From contig SVOY01000001.1 of the NCBI GenBank assembly GCA_015066105.1, forward strand, positions 458,127 through 522,126: DNA of 64,000 nt. Reading direction: 5' to 3'. Below, one piece after another: positions 37,594 to 53,985 of the stretch; position 1 is the stretch's first letter; each line of letters starts with the position of its first letter. The notes below the pieces were generated by a model. The model saw only the letters and a program-made list of their open reading frames with translations, was not told where the DNA came from and ran no database searches. This DNA comes from Oscillospiraceae bacterium (GTDB lineage Bacteria; Bacillota; Clostridia; Oscillospirales; Acutalibacteraceae). A program made the position numbers and the translations under genes.

Positions 37594-37670
37594 GAGGGTG
37601 TAGCTCAGTTGGTCAGAGTACTTGCTTGACATGCAAGGGGTCGGTGGTTCGAGCCCACTCATCCTCACCA
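37594..37670 (+). tRNA. tRNA-Val (anticodon GAC), CCA encoded
   Basis: Hand-folded. The 7-bp acceptor stem is GAGGGTG/CATCCTC with one G-U. D loop AGCTCAGTTGGTCAGAGT, anticodon loop TTGACAT, T arm GGTTCGAGCC, 3' ACCA. Confidence 0.9.
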
Positions 37671-41448: not shown

Positions 41449-42378
41449 ATGCCTTATTTATTTACACATTTTAAAGAAAAGCTTACCGTTGACGGTGAGC
41501 AGGTATATTTTGCTCTGAGCAGGGACGGCTTTAACTGGGAGCAGCTTAACGGCGGAAAGCCCGTGCTTGAAAGCACGATGAGCTCGGGCGGCTGCAGAGA
41601 CATTGAGATAACGCGCCTTAAGGACGGCTCCTTTGTTATTCTCACAACGGATGAATGTATTGTCAAGCGCTTTGATGAGAATTATAACGTTGATTGGAAA
41701 AACGTTAACCGCACGGGCAGTAAGGGCCTTTGTATGTGGAAAAGCAAGGACCTTGTTGAGTTTTCGGGTCAGAGGATTATACCCGTGGGCAGAGACGATT
41801 TCGGCTGTTTGTGGGCACCCGAGATTATTTATGACGATATAAATGATGAATATGTTATTCACTGGGGCTCAACGGTAAAGCAGGACGATTACAGCCATAT
41901 GTCGATTTATTACTGCACAACAAAGGATTTTGAAAGCTTTTCCCGACCTAAGCTCTTTTTCACAAAGCAGAACGAAATTCTTGACACCCACATAAGAAAA
42001 ATTGACGGGAAATATCATATGTTTTATAAAAATGCCGATAACCCGGGAATGAATATGCACGCCGTTTCCGAGGATTTGTACGGACCTTATCTGCACGATG
42101 AGGCCTTTGAAGAATATATGCGCGGCATTGAAAGGGCAAACTGCTACGAGGCCCCCACAACAACGGTGCTTCCCGACGGCCGCTGGTGCCTTATGCTTGA
42201 CTTTTTCGGCTGTGAAAAGTCTGAAATGGGCTACGTGCCCTTTGTGAGCGAAAAGCCGGGCGACACCGGCTTCAAAAGGTGTGACGGGGACTTTTCCTTC
42301 CCTTACGGCTTCAAGCACGGCGGTATAATTGAAATCACCGATGAGGAATACGAAAGGCTGAAAATGCATTATAATTAA
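41449..42378 (+). CDS. GH43-like five-bladed beta-propeller glycoside hydrolase
   Basis: 309 aa; no signal peptide; WAPE motif and repeated blade pattern. Family assignment is tentative. Confidence 0.5.
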   Translation: MPYLFTHFKEKLTVDGEQVYFALSRDGFNWEQLNGGKPVLESTMSSGGCRDIEITRLKDGSFVILTTDECIVKRFDENYNVDWKNVNRTGSKGLCMWKSKDLVEFSGQRIIPVGRDDFGCLWAPEIIYDDINDEYVIHWGSTVKQDDYSHMSIYYCTTKDFESFSRPKLFFTKQNEILDTHIRKIDGKYHMFYKNADNPGMNMHAVSEDLYGPYLHDEAFEEYMRGIERANCYEAPTTTVLPDGRWCLMLDFFGCEKSEMGYVPFVSEKPGDTGFKRCDGDFSFPYGFKHGGIIEITDEEYERLKMHYN

Positions 42379-42464: not shown

Positions 42465-42477
42465 AAAAATAATAATC

Positions 42478-42660
42478 CCGCCGTGCCGTTTGTGATGTGT
42501 ATAACCTGCCTCAGTAGCAGGGTGGTGATAGCGAGACGGGTTCGCGCTCCCTTCGTCCGTTTAGTTGAAGTCCAAACGGGAGGTCTGCAATCCGCCGTCA
42601 AAGCATCTCTCCGTTTTATAACGTGTTGGGTTATAACGATCACAGATGTCGCACACAGCA
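42478..42660 (-). ncRNA. ssrS: candidate 6S-like regulatory RNA
   Basis: Hand fold. The interrupted closing stem pairs GUGC/GCAC, UGUGAU/AUCACA and UAUAACC/GGUUAUA. A large unpaired central bubble (about 28 nt per side) has a small 3'-side hairpin (CCUGC-N7-GCAGG). The apical stem pairs GACGG/CCGUC and CCGUUU/AAACGG. No ORF; a U7 terminator lies downstream. Confidence 0.45.
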
Positions 42661-42672
42661 GGAGTTATTTAA

Positions 42673-42990
42673 TTATTCTTCCTCGGCCTCGTATTTTTCC
42701 ATAAGTCTGTCCTCAAAAATGTTGCCGATTTCGTTGAATTCCTTTTCATCCTCAATCTGTACAAGGTAGGTTTCGCCGTTTTCCTCAATCACCTTGAGAA
42801 TGAAAGCGTCGCCGTCATCGTCAAGAATTTCGGCCGCATCGTCATAAATGGGTAAAAGGGCAACATATCTGTTACCGTCCTCGGTTTCAATTCTGTCAAT
42901 TTCTTCAAAAATATGCTCGGTGCCGTCGTCGTCAACAACGGATACGATATCAGAGGTGTCGTAATTAAGCTCTTCCATTTGTTCTTCCAA
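42673..42990 (-). CDS. DUF1292 domain protein
   Basis: 105-aa acidic protein with the DDDGTEHIFE...YVALLP pattern. Confidence 0.7.
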   Translation of the reverse strand: MEEQMEELNYDTSDIVSVVDDDGTEHIFEEIDRIETEDGNRYVALLPIYDDAAEILDDDGDAFILKVIEENGETYLVQIEDEKEFNEIGNIFEDRLMEKYEAEEE

Positions 42991-43208
42991 AAAAGGTCAG
43001 TGCCTTTATCCTTTCATTTTTTTACACTATTATTTTAATATCTCAGGACTATTATGTCAATATTTATTCGTAAATATTAAAAGTAAAAAAATAGAAGAAA
43101 ACTGTAGCATAAGCTTCAAATTTGTGTTATAATAATCATAATTGATTTTAAAGCGTAAGATTTAATAATCTGACCTGATATGATTATAATAAAGGATGTG
43201 AAAACATA

Positions 43209-44570
43209 ATGTCAAATTCCCTCAATCCGGTTTTCGGACAGTGGTATGTTGACCGTCAGCTGGGTAACGGCACCGACGGAAAGGTTTTTACTATTTATAA
43301 AGAGAAATATGACGGCACAAGAGAAACCGCTGTTATGAAAATGCTTCGTCTGGGTGAAAACCGCAACGAGAGAAAAACCTTCAACCTCAGCGGCGAAAAT
43401 GAGGAATACCCCTCTGAAGGCTTTGAAAAAATCATTGCAAGCATAAAAAAGAATATCGAAACCGTGAAAAAAGCCGATAACGGCAGATTTTTTATAAAAT
43501 ATGAGGACCTTGAGCTGAGAAAGGCAAGCGACGGAAAGGGTATACTCATCCTCATAAAGCTTGAGCAGGGAAAAAGCCTTGCAGAGGTGCTTAAGAATTT
43601 TACCTTCACCCTTGAGGAGACCTACCGCCTCGGCATAAACATCTGCCAGGCTTTGCAGAAATGCCGCACCTTCGGCTACGTTTATCCCAACCTCAAGCCC
43701 GAAAACATCCTTTTTGATAAAGAGGGCAGATGCAAAATCGGCGATTTCGGCTCCTTCAGCTGTCTTGAGCCTGCAAAAACCTCAATTTCCTATAAGCGTA
43801 CGCAGTATTATATGGCACCCGAGCTCATAAAAACGGGCAACATCAACTGCACCTGCGACACCTATTCTCTCGGCCTTATCCTTTATATGCTCACCAACAA
43901 AAACAGACTTCCCTTCACCGAGCCCTATCCCGAGCAGATTACGGTCAACTCCCTCAATGAGTCAACCGAAAGGCGCATACGCGGCGAAAGCTTTGAAAAG
44001 CCCGCCCACGCAAGTGAGGCACTGTGGAAAATCATCAAAAAGGCCTGCGCCCTTAAGCCTAACGACAGATACTTCACTCCCGAGCAGATGCTTTCCGACC
44101 TTAAAAACGCCATGAATAATCAGCCCTTTGAAAAGGCCGAGTATGACGATGTTTATTCCGAAAGCAAGGCTCTTGACGAAACGGATGAGCCGGTGGTTAT
44201 ACCCGAGGTTAAAAACATTTCTGCCGTAAAAGAGCAGGAGATTGACGTGCTTTCCATCAAGGAAGAAATCCACATTCCCGATATTATTCTTTCAAACTAT
44301 TCCGGCAGTGCCTTTACAAGCACCTCGGGCGACGGAAAAAAGTATGAAAAGCTTGTTGATACAAGGCCGAAGTCAAGGTATGATTTCCGCAGACTCAGAA
44401 AGCTTATGCTTTCAGCCTTTGTTGCAATCTGCTTTGTTCTGCTTTTCCTTTTCTCGGTCACGCTTGACGCGGATGCGGCCTTTTTCCCCGTGGGTTATGA
44501 CAGTGACCTTGCTGATACTGCCGATAATATGAATTTTTGTTTTAAAGGAGCGTTGCTTTATGGCAGCTGA
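43209..44570 (+). CDS. membrane-anchored Hanks-type Ser/Thr kinase homologue, predicted pseudokinase (catalytic loop YPNLKPEN)
   Basis: 453 aa. Gly loop LGNGTDGKV, AVMK, GDFG and MAPE are present, but HRD is replaced by YPN (Asn161, AAC at 43689-43691). One C-terminal TM helix. Confidence 0.8.
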   Translation: MSNSLNPVFGQWYVDRQLGNGTDGKVFTIYKEKYDGTRETAVMKMLRLGENRNERKTFNLSGENEEYPSEGFEKIIASIKKNIETVKKADNGRFFIKYEDLELRKASDGKGILILIKLEQGKSLAEVLKNFTFTLEETYRLGINICQALQKCRTFGYVYPNLKPENILFDKEGRCKIGDFGSFSCLEPAKTSISYKRTQYYMAPELIKTGNINCTCDTYSLGLILYMLTNKNRLPFTEPYPEQITVNSLNESTERRIRGESFEKPAHASEALWKIIKKACALKPNDRYFTPEQMLSDLKNAMNNQPFEKAEYDDVYSESKALDETDEPVVIPEVKNISAVKEQEIDVLSIKEEIHIPDIILSNYSGSAFTSTSGDGKKYEKLVDTRPKSRYDFRRLRKLMLSAFVAICFVLLFLFSVTLDADAAFFPVGYDSDLADTADNMNFCFKGALLYGS

Positions 44571-44871
44571 AATGATAAAAGAGATACTTAAAGCTGAAGC
44601 TCAGGCAAAGGAAGCTGAGAAGAAGGCTGAAAAAATCGGCGAAAAAATTATTCAGAATGCGAAAATTCAGGCGGATATCATCATAAAAAACGCCGTTGAC
44701 CAGGCCGTTAACCAGGCCAATATAATTATGAGCGACGCCGAATATTCCTCTGACGGCGTGATAAAGCAGGCAAACAAGCTTGCTCTTATGAGAGAAAAGA
44801 AATCCATTGCCGATACCGAAAAGCTTTATGACACAGCGATTAAAAAGGTTTTTGAAGAAATACTTAAATAA
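44560..44871 (+). CDS. V-type ATPase small coiled-coil subunit (G-like; E. hirae NtpF equivalent)
   Basis: 103 aa Ala/Glu/Lys-rich helix in first position of the ntp operon; SD AAGGAG; overlaps the kinase gene by 11 nt. Confidence 0.65.
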   Translation: MAAEMIKEILKAEAQAKEAEKKAEKIGEKIIQNAKIQADIIIKNAVDQAVNQANIIMSDAEYSSDGVIKQANKLALMREKKSIADTEKLYDTAIKKVFEEILK

Positions 44872-44945: not shown

Positions 44946-47401
<2,456 letters not shown>

Positions 47402-47440
47402 TCAAGGTTAAAAAATTATACCTTAAAAGGAGTTGAAGCA

Positions 47441-48031
47441 ATGACAGGACTTGAGAAAATACAAGAAAAAATCCTTGCCCGGGCAAAGGCTGACGGCGAC
47501 GTAATCATCGCAAAGGCCAATGAAGAAGCAAAGGAAATTCTGATAAACGCCCGTGTCAGAGCAGAAGAGCTTTCGCAAAAAATCATTTCCGATGCGGAAA
47601 AGCAGTCCGAAAAGAAAAAGCTGCTTGCCAAGGGTGCGGCAGAGTCTATAACCCGTAACCGCTACCTTGAAGTCAGAAATGCGATTATCAACGATATTAT
47701 TTCAGCGGCCTATGAGGAAATTGAAAGGCTCGGCGACGAAGAGTATTTTGACCTTCTCAGAAGGCTTTGCATTAAAAACATAACCCCGGGCGAATACGTT
47801 ATGCACCTTAACAGTGTTGACCTTTCACGTCTTCCCGAGGGCTTTGAGGACAGCATAAATGCAGAAATTTACGAAACTGCGGCCGTTTTTATCAGAAAAG
47901 AGGCGGCAGACATTGAAAACGGCTTTATTTTGAGCGGTGACGGTGTTGAAATCAACTGCACCTTCAGAGCTGTTTTTGACGAAAATATGGATAAGCTTAA
48001 GGATATGCTCAACATTGAGCTTTTTGGCTGA
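47441..48031 (+). CDS. ntpE: V-type ATPase subunit E
   Basis: 196 aa; N-terminal coiled coil; operon position. Confidence 0.8.
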   Translation: MTGLEKIQEKILARAKADGDVIIAKANEEAKEILINARVRAEELSQKIISDAEKQSEKKKLLAKGAAESITRNRYLEVRNAIINDIISAAYEEIERLGDEEYFDLLRRLCIKNITPGEYVMHLNSVDLSRLPEGFEDSINAEIYETAAVFIRKEAADIENGFILSGDGVEINCTFRAVFDENMDKLKDMLNIELFG

Positions 48032-48049
48032 GGAAAGAAGGTGAGGCAG

Positions 48050-49015
48050 ATGAGGGACACCGATTATGCTTTTTGCGTTGCTAAAATAAGGGCACTTGAA
48101 AACAAGCTGCTTTCAAAGCAGGATATAGCCGCGCTTATAGGGCAGAGGGATTTTGCGGCCGCTATGGGCTTTCTCAGCGAAAAAGGCTACGCCGCTCAGG
48201 ATGAGTCTTCTGCCGAGCTTATAAAAAGGCAGACCCTGCAGCTTAATGCCGTGCTCAACGAGAGCGTGCCAGACAAAAGGGTGCTTGATGCCCTTTATTT
48301 ACTTAACGATTATTTTAACCTTAAGGTTATGGTCAAATGTGCCGCCGAAAGAGAGGGTGCAGAGGGTCTTTTCCTTTTTCCCACAACGGCAGAGGTTGAG
48401 CACTTTGACGCCGATACCGAGGACGGAAGCTTCGTCTTCCTTAAAGAGCAGTACCGCAAGGCGGCAACGCAGGCCTATGCTATGGCAGTAAAAAGCGGTG
48501 ACGGCAGATATTCTGACGTGATAATCGATACCGCCGCAATCTGTGAGCTTTCACGTTATGCCAAAATGAAAAAAAGCGGACTTCTCGGTAAAATCTGCGG
48601 CTTCATTGCCGATACGGCCAACATTAAAATTGCCCTCAGATGCATTGCAACGGCCCGTGACGAGGATTATGTAAGGGCGGCCGTGGGCGACTGCTTTTTG
48701 CTTGATAAGCCGAGGCTTATTGCTTCGGTGCTTTCGGGCGGTGAGGCCCTTGAGGCTTATCTTGCTGACACGGAATATAAGCAAGGGCTTGCGGTTTACA
48801 AATCCAATCCCTCCGCTTTTGAAAAATGGTGTGACGACCGAGTTATGAAAATTGCCTCCGATGCCGTTTATACAAGCTTCGGCTTTGACCCGGTGGTATA
48901 TTACTATTACCGCAAAAATCTTGAAATCAAAACCGTGAGGATGATTTTGGCGGCAAAAAGGTCAGATATTGACACGGAGACTTTAAAGGAAAGGGTGAGA
49001 GAGCTTTATGCATAA
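48050..49015 (+). CDS. ntpC: V-type ATPase subunit C (d-type)
   Basis: ORF from GTG 48041; ATG 48050 preferred. About 321 aa; operon position. Confidence 0.8.
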   Translation: MRDTDYAFCVAKIRALENKLLSKQDIAALIGQRDFAAAMGFLSEKGYAAQDESSAELIKRQTLQLNAVLNESVPDKRVLDALYLLNDYFNLKVMVKCAAEREGAEGLFLFPTTAEVEHFDADTEDGSFVFLKEQYRKAATQAYAMAVKSGDGRYSDVIIDTAAICELSRYAKMKKSGLLGKICGFIADTANIKIALRCIATARDEDYVRAAVGDCFLLDKPRLIASVLSGGEALEAYLADTEYKQGLAVYKSNPSAFEKWCDDRVMKIASDAVYTSFGFDPVVYYYYRKNLEIKTVRMILAAKRSDIDTETLKERVRELYA

Positions 49016-49319
49016 GGTTGCGGCAATAGGGGACAGAGAAAGCGTTTCCGGCTTCAGAGCAATCGGTATGGAGGCCTTTTCTCCCTGCGGCAGGGAAGAA
49101 TGTCAGTCTCTTCTCAAAAAGCTTTGCACGGGCGATTACGCAATAATTTATATTACGGAGGAATTTGCACAGCACTGCAGGGATATCATAAAAAAATATG
49201 AGGATGTAATTTCTCCTGCAATAATACTTATTCCCGGTGTCAAAAACAATACGGGTGAGGGTATGCGACAGCTCAGCCTCAGCGTTGAAAGAGCCGTCGG
49301 CTCACAGCTGCCCGAATAA
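49008..49319 (+). CDS. V-type ATPase subunit F
   Basis: 103 aa; MHKVAAIGDRESVSGFRAIG start typical of subunit F; 8-nt overlap with the previous gene. Confidence 0.85.
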   Translation: MHKVAAIGDRESVSGFRAIGMEAFSPCGREECQSLLKKLCTGDYAIIYITEEFAQHCRDIIKKYEDVISPAIILIPGVKNNTGEGMRQLSLSVERAVGSQLPE

Positions 49320-49356
49320 AATGAGAACAATATTACACTGAAAAAGGTGAATAAAT

Positions 49357-51123
49357 ATGAATGACGGAATAATCAAAAAGATTTCTGGACCCCTTGTTGT
49401 TGCTTCGGGGATGAAAAATGCAAATATGTTTGACGTTGTCCGTGTAAGTGACGAAAGGCTTATCGGCGAAATTATCGAAATGCATGAGGACAGAGCCTCA
49501 ATCCAGGTTTATGAGGAAACCTCGGGCCTTAAGGTCGGCTCAAGGGTTGAGTCAACGGGTGAGCCGCTGAGCGTTGAGCTCGGCCCCGGTCTCATCGGCG
49601 GCATTTTTGACGGCATACAGAGACCGCTTGTTGAAATTATGAATCAGACGGGCAACAACCTTAAAAGAGGTACTGAAATCCCTGCCCTTGACAGAAGCAG
49701 ACAGTGGGTTTTTGAGCCCTCGGTCAGCGTTGGTGAGCAGGTTTACGGCGGTGACGTAATCGGCACCGTGCAGGAAACCGAGGTTGTAAGCCACAAAATT
49801 ATGCTGCCCGTAAACATTAACGGTATTATCAAGGAAATTACCGGCGGCACCTGCACCGTTGAGGATATTGTTGCCATTGTGCTTGACGAAAAGGGTCAGG
49901 AGCACGGAATCGGCATTGTTCAGCGTTGGCCCGTAAGAAAGCCGCGCCCCTACAAGAAAAAGCTCACACCCGATATGCCTCTGCTTACGGGTCAAAGAGT
50001 AATTGACGCCCTTTTTCCCATTGCAAAGGGCGGCGTCGGCGCAATTCCCGGCCCCTTCGGCAGCGGAAAAACCGTAACTCAGCACCAGGTGGCAAAGTGG
50101 GCGGATGCGGATATCGTTGTTTACATCGGCTGCGGTGAGCGCGGCAACGAAATGACGGATGTTCTCAACGAATTCCCCGAGCTTATTGATCCCCACACGG
50201 GCAAATCCCTTATGGAAAGAACGGTGCTTATTGCAAACACCTCAGATATGCCCGTTGCCGCCCGTGAGGCTTCAATTTACACGGGCATCACCATTGCGGA
50301 ATACTTCCGCGATATGGGCTACAGCGTGGCACTTATGGCAGACTCAACCTCGCGCTGGGCAGAGGCACTTCGTGAAATGTCCGGCAGACTTGAGGAAATG
50401 CCCGGTGAAGAGGGCTATCCCGCTTACCTTGCAAGCCGTCTTGCTCAGTTTTATGAAAGAGCAGGCCGTGTGCTTTCCCTGGGCAAAATTTCAAGAGAGG
50501 GCACCCTTTCCGTTATCGGTGCCGTTTCTCCTGCAGGCGGCGATATTTCAGAGCCCGTCAGCCAAGCAACCCTGCGTATTGTAAAGGTCTTCTGGGGCCT
50601 TGATTCGGCCCTTGCATATAAGCGTCATTTTCCTGCAATCAACTGGCTTACAAGCTATTCACTTTATGCCAACACCCTCGGCAAATGGTTTGACGAAAAC
50701 GTGGGCAGGGAGTGGTCAGGCTTACGCAGAGATATTATGAAGCTCCTTTCCGAGGAGGCTGAGCTGCTTGAAATGGTCAAGCTTGTGGGTATGGACTCAC
50801 TTTCACAGAAGGACCGCGTAAAAATGGAAATTGCACGCTCGGTAAGAGAGGACTTTCTCCATCAGCTTGCCTTCCATGAGGTGGACACCTTCACCTCGCC
50901 CAAAAAGCAGCTTATGATGATGAAGCTCATTATGGAGTTTTACGATAAATGCCTTTCAGTGCTCAGCGCGGAAATAAGCGTTGATGAAATGGCGGCTCTG
51001 CCCGTAAGAGAAAGAATAGGCCGCTTTAAATATATTCCCGAGGAAAGCATTGACGAAAGCTTTGCTCAGATTAAGGCTGAAATACACACACAGCTTAAAG
51101 AGCTTGCAGAAAGGGGAGAATAA
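49357..51123 (+). CDS. ntpA: V-type ATPase catalytic subunit A
   Basis: 588 aa; Walker A GPFGSGKT; non-homologous-region insert typical of A subunits. Confidence 0.97.
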
Positions 51124-51126
51124 CTT

Positions 51127-52500
51127 ATGCCAAAGGAATACAGAACCATAAGCGAGGTTGCAGGTCCCCTTATGCTTGTCAGGGGCGTCAGCGATGTTTC
51201 ATATAACGAGCTTGGTGAAATTGAGCTTAAAAACGGTGAAAAACGCCGTTGCAGAGTGCTTGAGGTAAACGAGGATAACGTGCTCGTTCAGCTTTTTGAG
51301 TCCTCGGCAGGCATAAACCTTGCAGAAAGCAAGGTGCGCTTTTTGGGCAGACAGATGGAGCTTGCAGTTTCAGAGGATATGCTCGGCAGAGTTTTTGACG
51401 GCCTCGGCAGACCCGTTGACGGCGGCCCCTCAATTCTTCCCGAAAAAAGGCTTGACGTAAACGGCCTTCCCATGAACCCTGCCGCCCGTAATTATCCCAG
51501 TGAATTCATTCAGACGGGCGTTTCCGCCATTGACGGACTCAACACCCTTGTAAGAGGCCAGAAGCTCCCCATTTTTTCAGCCTCGGGTCTTCCCCACGCC
51601 GAGCTTGCCGCACAGATTGCAAGGCAGGCAAAGGTAAGGGGCACCGACGAGAGCTTTGCCGTTGTTTTTGCCGCTATGGGCATTACCTTTGAGGAGTCGG
51701 AGTTTTTTACAAATTCCTTTAAGGAAACGGGTGCCATTGACAGAACGGTTATGTTCACAAACCTTGCAAACGACCCCGCCATTGAAAGAATTGCAACACC
51801 AAAAATGGCAATGACCGCCGCGGAATACCTTGCCTTTGACAAGGGTATGCACGTGCTTGTTATTATGACGGATATCACAAACTATGCCGATGCACTGCGT
51901 GAGGTCTCTGCCGCACGTAAGGAGGTGCCCGGCAGAAGAGGCTATCCCGGATATATGTACACCGACCTTGCTTCGATTTATGAGCGTGCCGGCAGACAGA
52001 AGGGCAAAAACGGCTCAATTACCCTTATTCCCATTCTCACAATGCCCGAGGACGACAAAACCCACCCCATTCCCGACCTTACGGGCTACATCACAGAGGG
52101 ACAGATTATCCTTTCACGTGAGCTTCACAGACGCTCCGTTACACCGCCCATTGACGTTCTTCCCTCACTTTCGCGCCTTAAGGATAAGGGTATCGGCGAG
52201 GGCAAGACCCGTGCCGACCATTCGGGCACAATGAATCAGCTTTTCTCCGCCTATGCAAGGGGCAAGGACTGCAAGGAGCTGATGATGATACTCGGTGAAT
52301 CCGCACTTACGGAAATTGACCGTATTTACGCAAAATTTGCCGAGGCCTTTGAGGAAAAATATGTTTCTCAGGGCAACGAAACCGACAGAAGCATTGAGGA
52401 TACGCTTTCAATCGGCTGGGAGCTGCTTTCCATTCTGCCCAGAAGTGAGCTCAAGAGAATATCCGACGAATTCCTTGACAAATATTACATTGAAAAGTAG
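51127..52500 (+). CDS. ntpB: V-type ATPase subunit B
   Basis: 457 aa; conserved B-subunit core ([14 protein letters not shown]). Confidence 0.97.
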
Positions 52501-52510
52501 GTGAAGCCCG

Positions 52511-53161
52511 ATGGCGGTGATGAATGTCAATCCAACAAGAATGGAGCTTACCACACTTAAGAAAAAGCTTGTTACCGCCCGCCGCGGGCATAAGCTTTTA
52601 AAGGATAAGCGTGACGAGCTTATGCGGCAGTTTTTGCTGCTTGTGAAGGAAAACAAGGCTCTTCGCAAAACCGTTGAGGAAAAAATGAAGCGCGCCAATG
52701 CCTTTATGGCTCTTGCCTCGGGTGAAATGAGCGACAGCGAAATCAACGTTGCTCTTATGCTTTCGGGTCAGAAGGTAGGCGTTGAGCTGAAAAAGAAAAA
52801 TGTTATGAGCGTATCCGTGCCCGAATATACGTTCAACCGCAGACTCGGCGAGGATGACGGCGGCTTTTCCTACGGCTTTGCCTTCACCTCGGGCGACCTT
52901 GACGAGGCAATAAGAATTTACACCTCACTTTCCGAGGATTTGCTCAGGCTTGCCGAGGTTGAAAAAACCTGTCAGCTGCTTGCAAGGGAGATTGAGGGCA
53001 CACGCAGAAGGGTAAACGCCCTTGAGCACGTGCTTATCACCGATTATGAGGATACGATTAAATATATCTCCGTAAAGCTTGAGGAAAACGACAGAAGCAA
53101 CATAACAAGGCTTATGAAGGTCAAGGATATGATGCTTGAAAAGGCACACAACTATAATTGA
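52511..53161 (+). CDS. ntpD: V-type ATPase subunit D
   Basis: 216 aa; N-terminal NPTRMEL..LK motif. Confidence 0.9.
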   Translation: MAVMNVNPTRMELTTLKKKLVTARRGHKLLKDKRDELMRQFLLLVKENKALRKTVEEKMKRANAFMALASGEMSDSEINVALMLSGQKVGVELKKKNVMSVSVPEYTFNRRLGEDDGGFSYGFAFTSGDLDEAIRIYTSLSEDLLRLAEVEKTCQLLAREIEGTRRRVNALEHVLITDYEDTIKYISVKLEENDRSNITRLMKVKDMMLEKAHNYN

Positions 53162-53165
53162 GATT

Positions 53166-53191
53166 AAAGGGATGTCACGGCATCCCTTTTT
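53166..53191 (+). terminator. rho-independent terminator of the ntp operon
   Basis: 9-bp stem aaagggatg / catcccttt followed by a T run. Confidence 0.8.
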
Positions 53192-53202: not shown

Positions 53203-53985
53203 ATGACGGAAAAACAGGAGCTTATATCACACATACTTGATTTAAAGGAAAAATCCGCAACGGAAAGCATAATTACCTCAAGCTCATTTTTATCGGTTGA
53301 TGAGCTTTCAGACGTCATAAAGGAAGAAAAGGTCAACAACAGATATGTTGATGCCTTTTATTACGGCGGCTATGAGGATGCCGAGCGTAAAACGGCTGTT
53401 TTTGTGCCGACCTTTTACGGTGTCAACGAGGATAAAATTGAAAGCTTTCTTAACGAAAACGAGTGTAATCCCGTTTCCTTACTGCTTGTAAAAAAGGATA
53501 AATTCACTTCTCTTACCCACCGAGATTATCTCGGTGCCCTTATGGGGCTCGGCCTTAAGCGCGAGGTTATCGGCGACATTGTTGCAAGTGACGACGGCTG
53601 CAGTATATTCTGCCTTAAGTCGGTTGCCGCCTTTATTGCCGAAAATCTTAGACGGGCGGGCAGAGGCAGTCTCACGGTGACCGTTGCCGATAAAAGCAAA
53701 ATGAGCATCAGCACCGCCGCAACAGAAACGGTTTTTGTTTCCGTTGCTTCAATGAGGCTTGACTGCCTTGTTGCCGCAGTGTTCAGGCTTTCAAGGCCTG
53801 CCGCCGCCGAGGCGATAAAGCAGGGGCTTGTTTATGTAAACAGTGCACAGCTTTTAAAATGCGACCACAACCTTAAAAAGGGTGATAAGCTTGTTTTAAG
53901 GGGTAAGGGCAAGGCTCTCATCGGTGAAACGCAGGGTCACAGCAAAAAGGGCAGAATACACCTTAACATAAAAAGATACCTATGA
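53203..53985 (+). CDS. ylmH: YlmH-family S4-domain RNA-binding protein
   Basis: 260 aa; central RDYLGALMGLGLKRE motif and a C-terminal S4 domain. Confidence 0.75.
   Translation: MTEKQELISHILDLKEKSATESIITSSSFLSVDELSDVIKEEKVNNRYVDAFYYGGYEDAERKTAVFVPTFYGVNEDKIESFLNENECNPVSLLLVKKDKFTSLTHRDYLGALMGLGLKREVIGDIVASDDGCSIFCLKSVAAFIAENLRRAGRGSLTVTVADKSKMSISTAATETVFVSVASMRLDCLVAAVFRLSRPAAAEAIKQGLVYVNSAQLLKCDHNLKKGDKLVLRGKGKALIGETQGHSKKGRIHLNIKRYL

Follow-up and report, generated by a model that had tools for sequence, protein, structure and literature searches.

Within a 64,000-nucleotide (nt) stretch from the genome of an Oscillospiraceae bacterium (Acutalibacteraceae in GTDB; contig SVOY01000001.1), which we call the window, a 453-amino-acid (aa) open reading frame (ORF) related to Hanks-type protein kinases lies directly upstream of the ntp genes for a V-type ATPase. 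An earlier note, made from the sequence alone, had described this ORF as a membrane-anchored pseudokinase in which the catalytic HRD motif reads YPN, and had raised the idea of a role as an ATPase subunit or regulator. We found that the ORF very probably represents a conserved family of membrane-anchored Hanks-type pseudokinases that has not been described, and we are similarly confident that it is the first, translationally coupled cistron of a Na+-V-ATPase operon in this genome. The features that carry them are as follows, in window coordinates:

43209..44570, + strand: pseudokinase ORF, 453 aa, with a kinase fold, a disordered linker, a single transmembrane (TM) helix and a short acidic tail predicted to lie outside
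43248..44093, + strand: kinase-fold domain, residues 14-295 (Pfam PF00069)
43275..43277, + strand: Asp23 (GAC), at the aromatic position of the glycine loop (G loop; G-x-G-T-D-G-K-V), the glycines of which are kept
43338..43340, + strand: Lys44 (AAA), the beta3 (VAIK) Lys, in an AVMK context and aligned to the beta3 Lys of RSK2
43452..43454, + strand: Asn82 (AAT), at the position of the alphaC Glu, within helix 73-88 of the AlphaFold2 (AF2) model
43683..43691, + strand: Tyr159-Pro160-Asn161 in place of His-Arg-Asp; Asn161 is AAC at 43689-43691, and Lys163 and Asn166 are kept
43743..43745, + strand: Asp179 (GAT) of DFG (in GDFG), kept in all three groups of sequences compared below
44256..44279, + strand: linker motif I-K-E-E-I-H-I-P, residues 350-357, in an otherwise disordered linker ~41 residues before the TM helix
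44403..44465, + strand: single TM helix, residues 399-419, from hydropathy (AF2 helix 393-423)
44545..44570, + strand: predicted translational-coupling junction, with a Shine-Dalgarno (SD) sequence AAGGAG at 44545-44550 inside the pseudokinase coding sequence, the next ATG at 44560 and the stop codon TGA at 44568-44570
44560..44871, + strand: first ntp gene, encoding a 103-aa coiled-coil protein, probably a G/NtpF/AhaH-like peripheral-stalk subunit
44946..53161, + strand: ntpI, K, E, C, F, A, B and D, with Pfam/NCBIfam matches to V-ATPase I(a), K(c), E, C(d), F, A, B and D

The 453-aa ORF matches the Pfam Pkinase family over the full domain (105.6 bits against a cutoff of 31.7, E 3.7e-30), and its AF2 model has a bilobal fold whose best Foldseek matches in the PDB are Mycobacterium tuberculosis PknB and PknA (E ~1e-15 to 1e-14, TM-score ~0.72, target-normalised), so we assign it to the Hanks-type kinase fold. 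The G loop GNGTDGKV, the beta3 Lys, GDFG and MAPE that the earlier note had listed are all present, and the coordinates it gave are correct. In the AF2 model (mean predicted local distance difference test score (pLDDT) 63, predicted template modelling score (pTM) 0.62), the kinase fold is followed by a disordered linker at residues 311-391, where pLDDT is below 50, and by a helix at residues 393-423. A single TM helix with a short tail and no sensor region, as first noted, is what we see: the tail behind the helix is 34 aa in the window protein, and we found no Pfam/NCBIfam match to PASTA repeats or another extracellular sensor domain in the pseudokinase, which has ~34 aa past the helix. The PASTA-kinase model NF033483 gives 96 bits against an equivalog cutoff of 450.

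For all residue counts in the main clade we used 79 species orthologs (443-464 aa). Across these, the maximum Kyte-Doolittle window of the TM helix averages 3.1, there are about six Lys or Arg residues in the 15 aa preceding the helix, and an acidic tail of ~33 aa lies behind it. The Lys/Arg-rich approach and the acidic tail imply an N-in/C-out topology, and so a bitopic, C-terminally anchored protein whose kinase domain is cytoplasmic. The linker is longer in the ntp-linked members examined, and the motif within it, generalised as [LIVM][KR][EDQ][EK][ILV]x[ILV]P, is present in 70 of the 79 crown species, always 38-44 aa ahead of the TM helix. We found the motif in 0 of 135 canonical relatives; it is also missing from P0138, a member of the ntp-less sister clade described below, and from three of the four basal ntp-linked representatives, while the fourth, P0124, has it.

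We compared active-site residues in three groups: 83 ntp-linked sequences (the 79 species orthologs and 4 basal members), 43 sister-clade sequences and the 121 closest relatives with an HRD motif, which we call canonical. The canonical set shares the N-lobe insertion of the family, which allowed the alphaC region to be aligned without gaps. HMMER alignments to PDB kinases, made with the single sequence and with a family profile, missed the alphaC region because of this insertion. In the catalytic loop, HMMER aligns the query YPNLKPENIL on YRDLKPENIL of RSK2, which places Asn161 at the catalytic-base position and Pro160 at the HRD-Arg position, as the earlier note had read them. Y-P-N is found in 79/79 species orthologs and H-R-D in 121/121 canonical relatives, while one of the 4 basal ntp-linked representatives (P0125) has Tyr at the catalytic-Asp position (YPY). 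In terms of sequence, a pseudokinase is a kinase homolog in which the VAIK Lys, the HRD Asp or the DFG Asp (one or more of them) is missing; with Asn161 also in 43/43 sister sequences, the HRD Asp is replaced by Asn in 79 main-clade and 43 sister sequences.

There are further lesions beyond those first reported. In the gapless alphaC column, Glu is present in 120/121 canonical relatives, but Asn occupies it in 75/79 crown sequences and 4/4 basal ones, and Ser or Thr in the sister clade; with Asn82 at this position, the salt-bridge partner of the beta3 Lys is gone. One MAFFT run put Asp at this position in the sister clade, and we set that result aside because the gapless alignment, which fits the hydrophobic pattern of the helix, gives Ser/Thr; we flag the ambiguity. 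At G-loop position 23, all 83 ntp-linked sequences have Asp (79/79 species), whereas the sister clade has Tyr or His (43/43) and canonical relatives have Phe or Tyr (120/121). Asp23 is the sole active-site change specific to ntp-linked members. In the P+1 loop 'GT' reads 'RT', with Arg197 in 79/79 orthologs and Gly in 121/121 canonical relatives. In contrast to these positions, Lys44, Lys163, Asn166, Asp179, Thr198, Glu205, Asp217 and Arg287 are invariant, and Lys44 is unchanged in 79/79 main-clade, 43/43 sister and 121/121 canonical sequences. Of the residues expected of a competent kinase, the protein lacks the HRD Asp and the alphaC Glu and retains the beta3 Lys, Mg-binding Asn and DFG Asp. 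Judged by its sequence the protein is a pseudokinase, more degraded than first described. Lys44, Asn166 and Asp179 do not vary even though the catalytic base is gone, a pattern which suggests that the pocket still binds a ligand.

The same residues could be read as those of a weakly or unconventionally active kinase, in which Asn161 would allow slow phosphotransfer to a co-assembled partner (for example, a V-ATPase subunit) and proximity would offset a low kcat. Slow phosphotransfer has been reported for HER3 and the JAK2 JH2 domain, and Lys44, Asn166, Asp179, Lys163, the Glu205-Arg287 pair and the P+1 Thr198, all invariant here, make up the full set for holding Mg-ATP and a Ser/Thr substrate. 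However, four catalytic or regulatory elements (HRD Asp, HRD Arg, alphaC Glu and P+1 Gly) have changed together and are fixed, the ntp-linked clade adds an acidic residue to the G loop, and there is no PP2C phosphatase gene in the pseudokinase operon, unlike the nearest canonical relative (P0126, at locus L085), which has a PP2C phosphatase partner. We therefore regard residual kinase activity of this kind as unlikely.

To describe how the family is distributed, we searched 5.8 billion proteins and obtained 806 homologs, the best 120 of which are all ~450 aa long and 55-99% identical. A scan of 185,579 species genomes gave 80 loci, all in metagenome-assembled genomes (MAGs) of Acutalibacteraceae or other Oscillospirales from human, ruminant and rabbit guts. 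In a profile search of 1.84 billion representatives, the Y-P-N clade forms about nine 50%-identity clusters, and canonical HRD kinases (400-1100 aa) rank directly beneath it. The range of the family does not extend beyond Acutalibacteraceae and related MAGs of the Oscillospirales. The MAGs at five loci (L009, L022, L046, L050 and L058) are labelled 'uncultured Faecalibacterium sp.'; the locus is syntenic in them and 49-62% identical to that of Acutalibacteraceae MAGs, so these labels are probably misassigned.

In all 79 informative species loci, the small subunit gene and then ntpI-K-E-C-F-A-B-D lie directly downstream of the pseudokinase gene, and the 80th locus stops at a contig edge. The divergent representatives P0124, P0131 and P0125 are also ntp-linked, with unrelated upstream neighbours at P0125, and metagenomic loci of the main clade are ntp-linked in 14 of 14 cases. 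Altogether, the pseudokinase gene is directly upstream of ntp in 96/96 informative main-clade loci, not counting the window. Upstream rearrangement has removed a neighbouring DUF1292 gene in 18/72 loci, and the pairing of kinase and ntp genes is never broken. The geometry of the pair is conserved across ~100 lineages.

When we examined the four nearest relatives that lack a Y-x-N loop (three with HRD and one, P0132, with HRN), we found that none is ntp-linked; they lie in a PP2C-kinase pair, at a leucine-rich-repeat (LRR) kinase, in a kinase-paralog array and in a type VII secretion system (T7SS) locus. As a separate observation, the nearest canonical relatives (P0126 at L085, P0130 at L111 and P0132 at L112) often have two kinase-domain matches, and they are found in kinase-paralog arrays with DUF6273 or in a T7SS locus with WXG100 and FtsK/EssC-like genes. 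P0132 has GFG for DFG in addition to its HRN loop and may be another pseudokinase, and the group as a whole resembles a lineage-specific kinase expansion in Clostridia.

The pseudokinase gene overlaps the small subunit gene by 11 nt in the window, with the ATG at 44560 and the SD sequence AAGGAG that had been noted before. Of 80 junctions (79 genome loci and the window), 59 have an overlap of 11 nt, 11 have one of 16 nt and 4 have one of 20 nt, which makes 74/80 with an overlap of 11-20 nt; in the remaining 6 the genes are spaced by 0 to +19 nt, so that no gap exceeds 19 nt. Upstream of the pseudokinase gene we found one further feature of the transcription unit:

42991..43208, + strand: AT-rich divergent spacer that probably contains the operon promoter, with promoter-like sites such as TTAATA-17-TATAAT at 43162-43190 and an SD sequence AAAGGA ~11 nt before the ATG at 43209

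In 46/74 loci, promoter-like sites (matching the consensus at >=10 of 12 positions) occur within the 250 nt that precede the kinase gene, as compared to 4/74 in its last sixth. These counts, together with the overlapping junctions, support the co-transcription and translational coupling that the earlier note had thought likely. Its remark that there is no terminator between the two genes is true, but trivially so, since the genes overlap. A possible internal ntp promoter at 44356-44384, which matches the consensus at 10/12 positions in the window, was rejected because it is not conserved (4/74 loci), and a weak terminator-like site at 44398-44413, in the region coding for the TM helix, has a 6-bp stem and a poor T-run and was taken as chance. 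No Rfam leader or riboswitch was found upstream of the operon. Taken together, these data point to the pseudokinase gene as the promoter-proximal cistron of a predicted 10-gene unit made up of the pseudokinase, the G-like stalk subunit and ntpI-K-E-C-F-A-B-D.

Because the SD sequence and start codon of the next gene lie within the pseudokinase gene and constrain its last residues, one can imagine a decaying, functionless remnant that survives only as the carrier of the operon promoter and of the ribosome-binding site of its neighbour. The conservation of the protein speaks against this. The ORF is full length (443-464 aa) and free of frameshifts in 79 species at 45-80% identity, there are more than 100 invariant columns over the kinase fold, buried structural residues included, and the TM helix and topology signals are conserved as well. 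The protein is also conserved independently in the sister clade. We consider the remnant reading highly improbable and essentially refuted by this pattern.

The operon itself is a complete V/A-type ATPase operon of the Enterococcus hirae ntp type, as had been claimed, in that all eight genes from ntpI to ntpD were matched by Pfam/NCBIfam. The identity of the small coiled-coil subunit that opens it is less firm, its best matches, to AhaH and to stalk subunits E/G of V/A-ATPases, lying at E 0.005-0.2: in the window its matches to TIGR02926 AhaH (E 0.0055) and ATP-synt_B (E 0.007) are weak, and the best PDB matches of its family profile are the E, G and b stalks of V/A-ATPases (E 0.02-0.65). Its gene occupies the same place in the operon as E. 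hirae ntpF. NtpK (46925-47401, + strand) is a duplicated c subunit with 4 TM helices that matches E. hirae NtpK (2BL2) with an E value of 4e-40, and a 12-residue segment and VETYA, which we take to form the Na+ site, are conserved. Since these segments are kept, the ATPase of the window is probably a Na+ pump rather than an H+ pump.

The genes on either side of the 10-gene unit, and a hairpin at its end, bear on the origin of the linkage:

42673..42990, - strand: DUF1292 gene, the divergent upstream neighbour (Pfam PF06949, 1.3e-17)
53168..53191, + strand: terminator-like hairpin AGGGATGTCACGGCATCCCT followed by TTTT, after ntpD (-10.9 kcal/mol; stem at 53168-53187)
53203..53985, + strand: YlmH-like S4-domain gene (Pfam YlmH_RBD, 4.3e-15, and S4)

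The hairpin, which a consensus terminator scan of the window did not list, is likely the 3' end or an attenuation point of the 10-gene unit. Across 56 loci, the spacer between ntpD and ylmH contains a hairpin of -7 kcal/mol or lower with a T-run in 24, with differing stem sequences, and in ~20 it instead measures only -10 to +4 nt. With a hairpin in some lineages and ylmH abutting ntpD in others, the 3' boundary of the operon appears to depend on the lineage. A DUF1292 gene lies within 1.5 kb upstream of the pseudokinase gene in 54/72 genome loci, and a YlmH-like gene follows ntpD in 54/57.

We found that a sister clade keeps the pseudokinase gene without adjacent ntp genes. It comprises ~43 clusters of 387-419 aa (typically ~392 aa), with catalytic loops that read Y-[TPSAC]-N, apart from one F-T-N member (P0310), and with Asp179, like Asn161 and Lys44, in 43/43. 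One member, P0138 (37% identity), combines a Y-P-N loop with a TM helix and a short tail; its gene lies between a DUF1292 gene and a YlmH-like gene, without ntp genes. The same arrangement, a DUF1292 gene on the opposite strand, the pseudokinase gene and a YlmH-like gene, was seen at 4/4 sister loci examined (L084, L087, L107/108 and L109/110, with L107/108 on a 69-kb contig), and no ntp genes were found within 10 kb at these four. The sister pseudokinase gene overlaps ylmH by 11 nt (L107) or 41 nt (L109). In a neighbour-joining tree (316 columns, 100 bootstraps), the Y-x-N superclade has a support of 100, the ntp-linked members form one clade (97) and the ntp-less sister forms another (100). 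The sister clade adds another group of undescribed pseudokinases, possibly one linked to cell division or ribosome quality control.

A different account of the locus is that an older module of DUF1292, pseudokinase and YlmH genes, with a role in the envelope, cell division or ribosome quality control and none in the ATPase, received the ntp genes by insertion in one ancestor; the ntp genes would borrow its promoter, and co-expression with the ATPase would be accidental. The arrangement at the four sister loci, including the overlaps with ylmH, is what such a module would leave, and the same flanking genes are found in the ntp-linked clade at the frequencies given above. In the ~20/56 loci where the two genes nearly touch, ylmH is still tightly coupled to ntpD, and the two clades have inherited the Y-x-N loop and the lack of the alphaC Glu from their common ancestor. 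In Bacillus subtilis, YlmH has a documented role in ribosome-associated quality control (PMC11317155). However, the sister clade could equally have deleted ntp. In the 24/56 linked loci with a hairpin, the window among them, the hairpin parts ntp from ylmH, which points to a transcript that joins the pseudokinase gene to ntp and probably leaves out ylmH. The DUF1292 neighbour has been lost from the 18/72 rearranged loci and from L082 while the pairing of kinase and ntp genes is intact. A functional shift is suggested by the appearance of Asp23, the longer linker and the linker motif in the ntp-linked lineage. We think this account possible but doubtful.

Several of these results, and some from the protein itself, weigh against a role in the ATPase. 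The earlier note had asked about kinase-ntp adjacency in related Clostridia and had named homologues unlinked to ntp as a result that would refute its idea. The adjacency holds throughout the 96 main-clade loci but not in the sister clade, which supplies such homologues and in which selection maintains the pseudokinase without adjacent ATPase genes; the idea of an ATPase subunit or regulator is thus supported by operon linkage within one clade and partly contradicted by orthologs outside it. Because the ntp-linked members form a single clade, the association amounts to one insertion or deletion event that has since persisted, and operons whose only promoter lies at the upstream end tend to persist in any case. 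Since both clades share the Asp-to-Asn change and the loss of the alphaC Glu, neither lesion is tied to the linkage; only Asp23 tracks it exactly (83/83 linked, 0/43 unlinked), and most occurrences of the linker motif fall in the crown. ATP binding could be abolished by Asp23 and the lack of the alphaC Glu, and the confidence of the AF2 model is only moderate.

Some other features near these genes were noted in passing. A 6S/SsrS RNA gene lies at 42471-42667 (- strand; Rfam RF00013, 51.1 bits, gathering score 46.4), directly 3' of the DUF1292 gene, and mechanically called ORFs over it (e.g. 42483..42704) are probably spurious. A 309-aa ORF at 41449-42378 (+ strand) matches GH43 just below threshold (29.3 bits, cutoff 32.2) and is kept at 67-87% identity upstream of DUF1292 in many related loci; its conservation marks it as a real gene, one of a divergent glycoside-hydrolase-like family. 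The only tRNA gene in the window is a tRNA-Val (GAC) at 37594-37670 (+ strand).

With these points in view, an accessory role of the pseudokinase in assembly or regulation of the V-ATPase is our best single hypothesis, suggested by the structure of the operon, and we hold it tentatively, at somewhat less than an even chance. We favour it because of the strict and long-lived operon membership, the coupling to a stalk-subunit gene, the derived features that arose with the linkage and the precedents among membrane machines. The mechanism we propose would begin with ribosomes that finish the pseudokinase and re-initiate on the stalk-subunit gene, so that both proteins are made together. The pseudokinase would not phosphorylate; its Lys/Asn/Asp pocket would bind a nucleotide or metal. 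A flexible linker of ~95 residues would tether it to the membrane and hold I-K-E-E-I-x-I-P at a fixed distance from the bilayer. From there it could dock on a membrane-proximal cytoplasmic part of the Na+-V-ATPase, either the N-domain of NtpI or the E/G stalk, and act as an assembly or regulatory accessory factor. In a more specific form of this hypothesis, which we offer as a speculative possibility, the protein would be a membrane-tethered, nucleotide-sensing pseudokinase that serves as a stoichiometrically co-translated regulatory or assembly subunit of a bacterial rotary ATPase, with Asp23 and I-K-E-E-I-x-I-P having created the interface. If true, it would be the first kinase-fold component of any prokaryotic V/A-ATPase.

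Whatever its role, the family is a new bacterial pseudokinase family with a new operon association. Bacterial pseudokinases have barely been explored: a 2025 atlas and a review list only seven families, none of them known to have a partner of this kind. The present family has a distinct pattern of lesions (HRD Asp and alphaC Glu gone; Lys, Asn and DFG Asp kept) and is found only in uncultured gut Oscillospirales, which are under-sampled by curated databases. Its coupling to the gene for a stalk subunit of a Na+-V-ATPase supplies a ready partner hypothesis. A physical link would mean that a prokaryotic rotary ATPase is regulated or assembled in a new way, and would offer a tractable system in which to study how membrane machines acquire pseudokinases as parts. 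Were the link purely historical, the locus would be a clean natural example of a large operon nested in a two-gene operon, with translational coupling rebuilt at the new junction. The claim of a role in the ATPase is held back by the one-event phylogeny and by the partial contradiction from the sister clade.

Among known systems, the closest in fold are the Hanks kinases PknB, PrkC and PknA, which likewise have a cytoplasmic kinase domain, a linker and a single TM helix, and the nearest relatives in sequence are canonical Clostridia HRD kinases with the same N-lobe insertion. In contrast to these PknB/PrkC-type kinases, the present protein is a pseudokinase without PASTA or another extracellular domain and without an adjacent PP2C gene, and it carries substitutions at the catalytic Asp, the HRD Arg, the alphaC Glu and the P+1 Gly. 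B. subtilis YabT resembles it in having a Hanks fold, a C-terminal TM anchor and no extracellular sensor, but YabT is an active kinase with a DNA-binding juxtamembrane region and no ATPase context (PMC6333020).

In its active site, the family resembles the eukaryotic pseudokinases HER3 ('HRN') and JAK2 JH2 ('HGN'), in which the catalytic base is also replaced by Asn and the beta3 Lys, Mg-binding Asn and DFG Asp are kept. HER3 and JAK2 JH2 bind ATP and act mainly as allosteric partners. Nucleotide binding in pseudokinases has been reviewed (PMC4718504). These proteins belong to an unrelated lineage, however, and the present family has also lost the alphaC Glu and the HRD His and Arg, and its ntp-linked clade has an Asp in the G loop.

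Seven bacterial pseudokinase families of the serine/threonine kinase (STK) type have been described: ActPs1-3, GLW, CP1, DYD and DLHK (PMC12599244; bioRxiv 10.1101/2025.01.12.632604). Like the present family, they are conserved, Hanks-derived and predicted to be non-catalytic, and some are membrane-associated or scaffolds. All seven show substitution of the VAIK Lys (partial in CP1 and DYD), and several lack the DFG Asp (same sources). In the present family, Lys44 and Asp179 are invariant, the lesions are in the HRD Asp and alphaC Glu, and the taxonomy differs, as all members come from uncultured Oscillospirales MAGs. The pseudokinase thus lies outside all seven published families, being set apart from them by their descriptions rather than by a direct comparison of sequences, and no link to a rotary ATPase is found in those descriptions.

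The operon shares with the Na+-V-ATPase operon of E. hirae (ntpFIKECGABD...) the gene order from the small stalk subunit on and the Na+-site residues of NtpK. We know of no kinase-like gene in the E. hirae operon, and a full-text literature search for a kinase or pseudokinase in a prokaryotic V/A-ATPase operon found nothing relevant, in agreement with the earlier note, which was not aware of a kinase-like subunit described for such an ATPase. The nearest functional precedents come from other membrane machines. EssB/YukC in the type VIIb secretion system (T7SSb) are membrane pseudokinase folds that act as structural machine parts (PMC3526858, PMC9600267), and the M. tuberculosis MviN pseudokinase is a non-catalytic scaffold of a membrane machine (PMC12599244). 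In these proteins all catalytic motifs are degraded and the partners are proven, whereas here the pocket residues are kept and the partner is read from the operon. Like them, however, the protein described here would be a bitopic or membrane-linked pseudokinase encoded together with a membrane machine, and they provide the functional analogy for a role in the ATPase.

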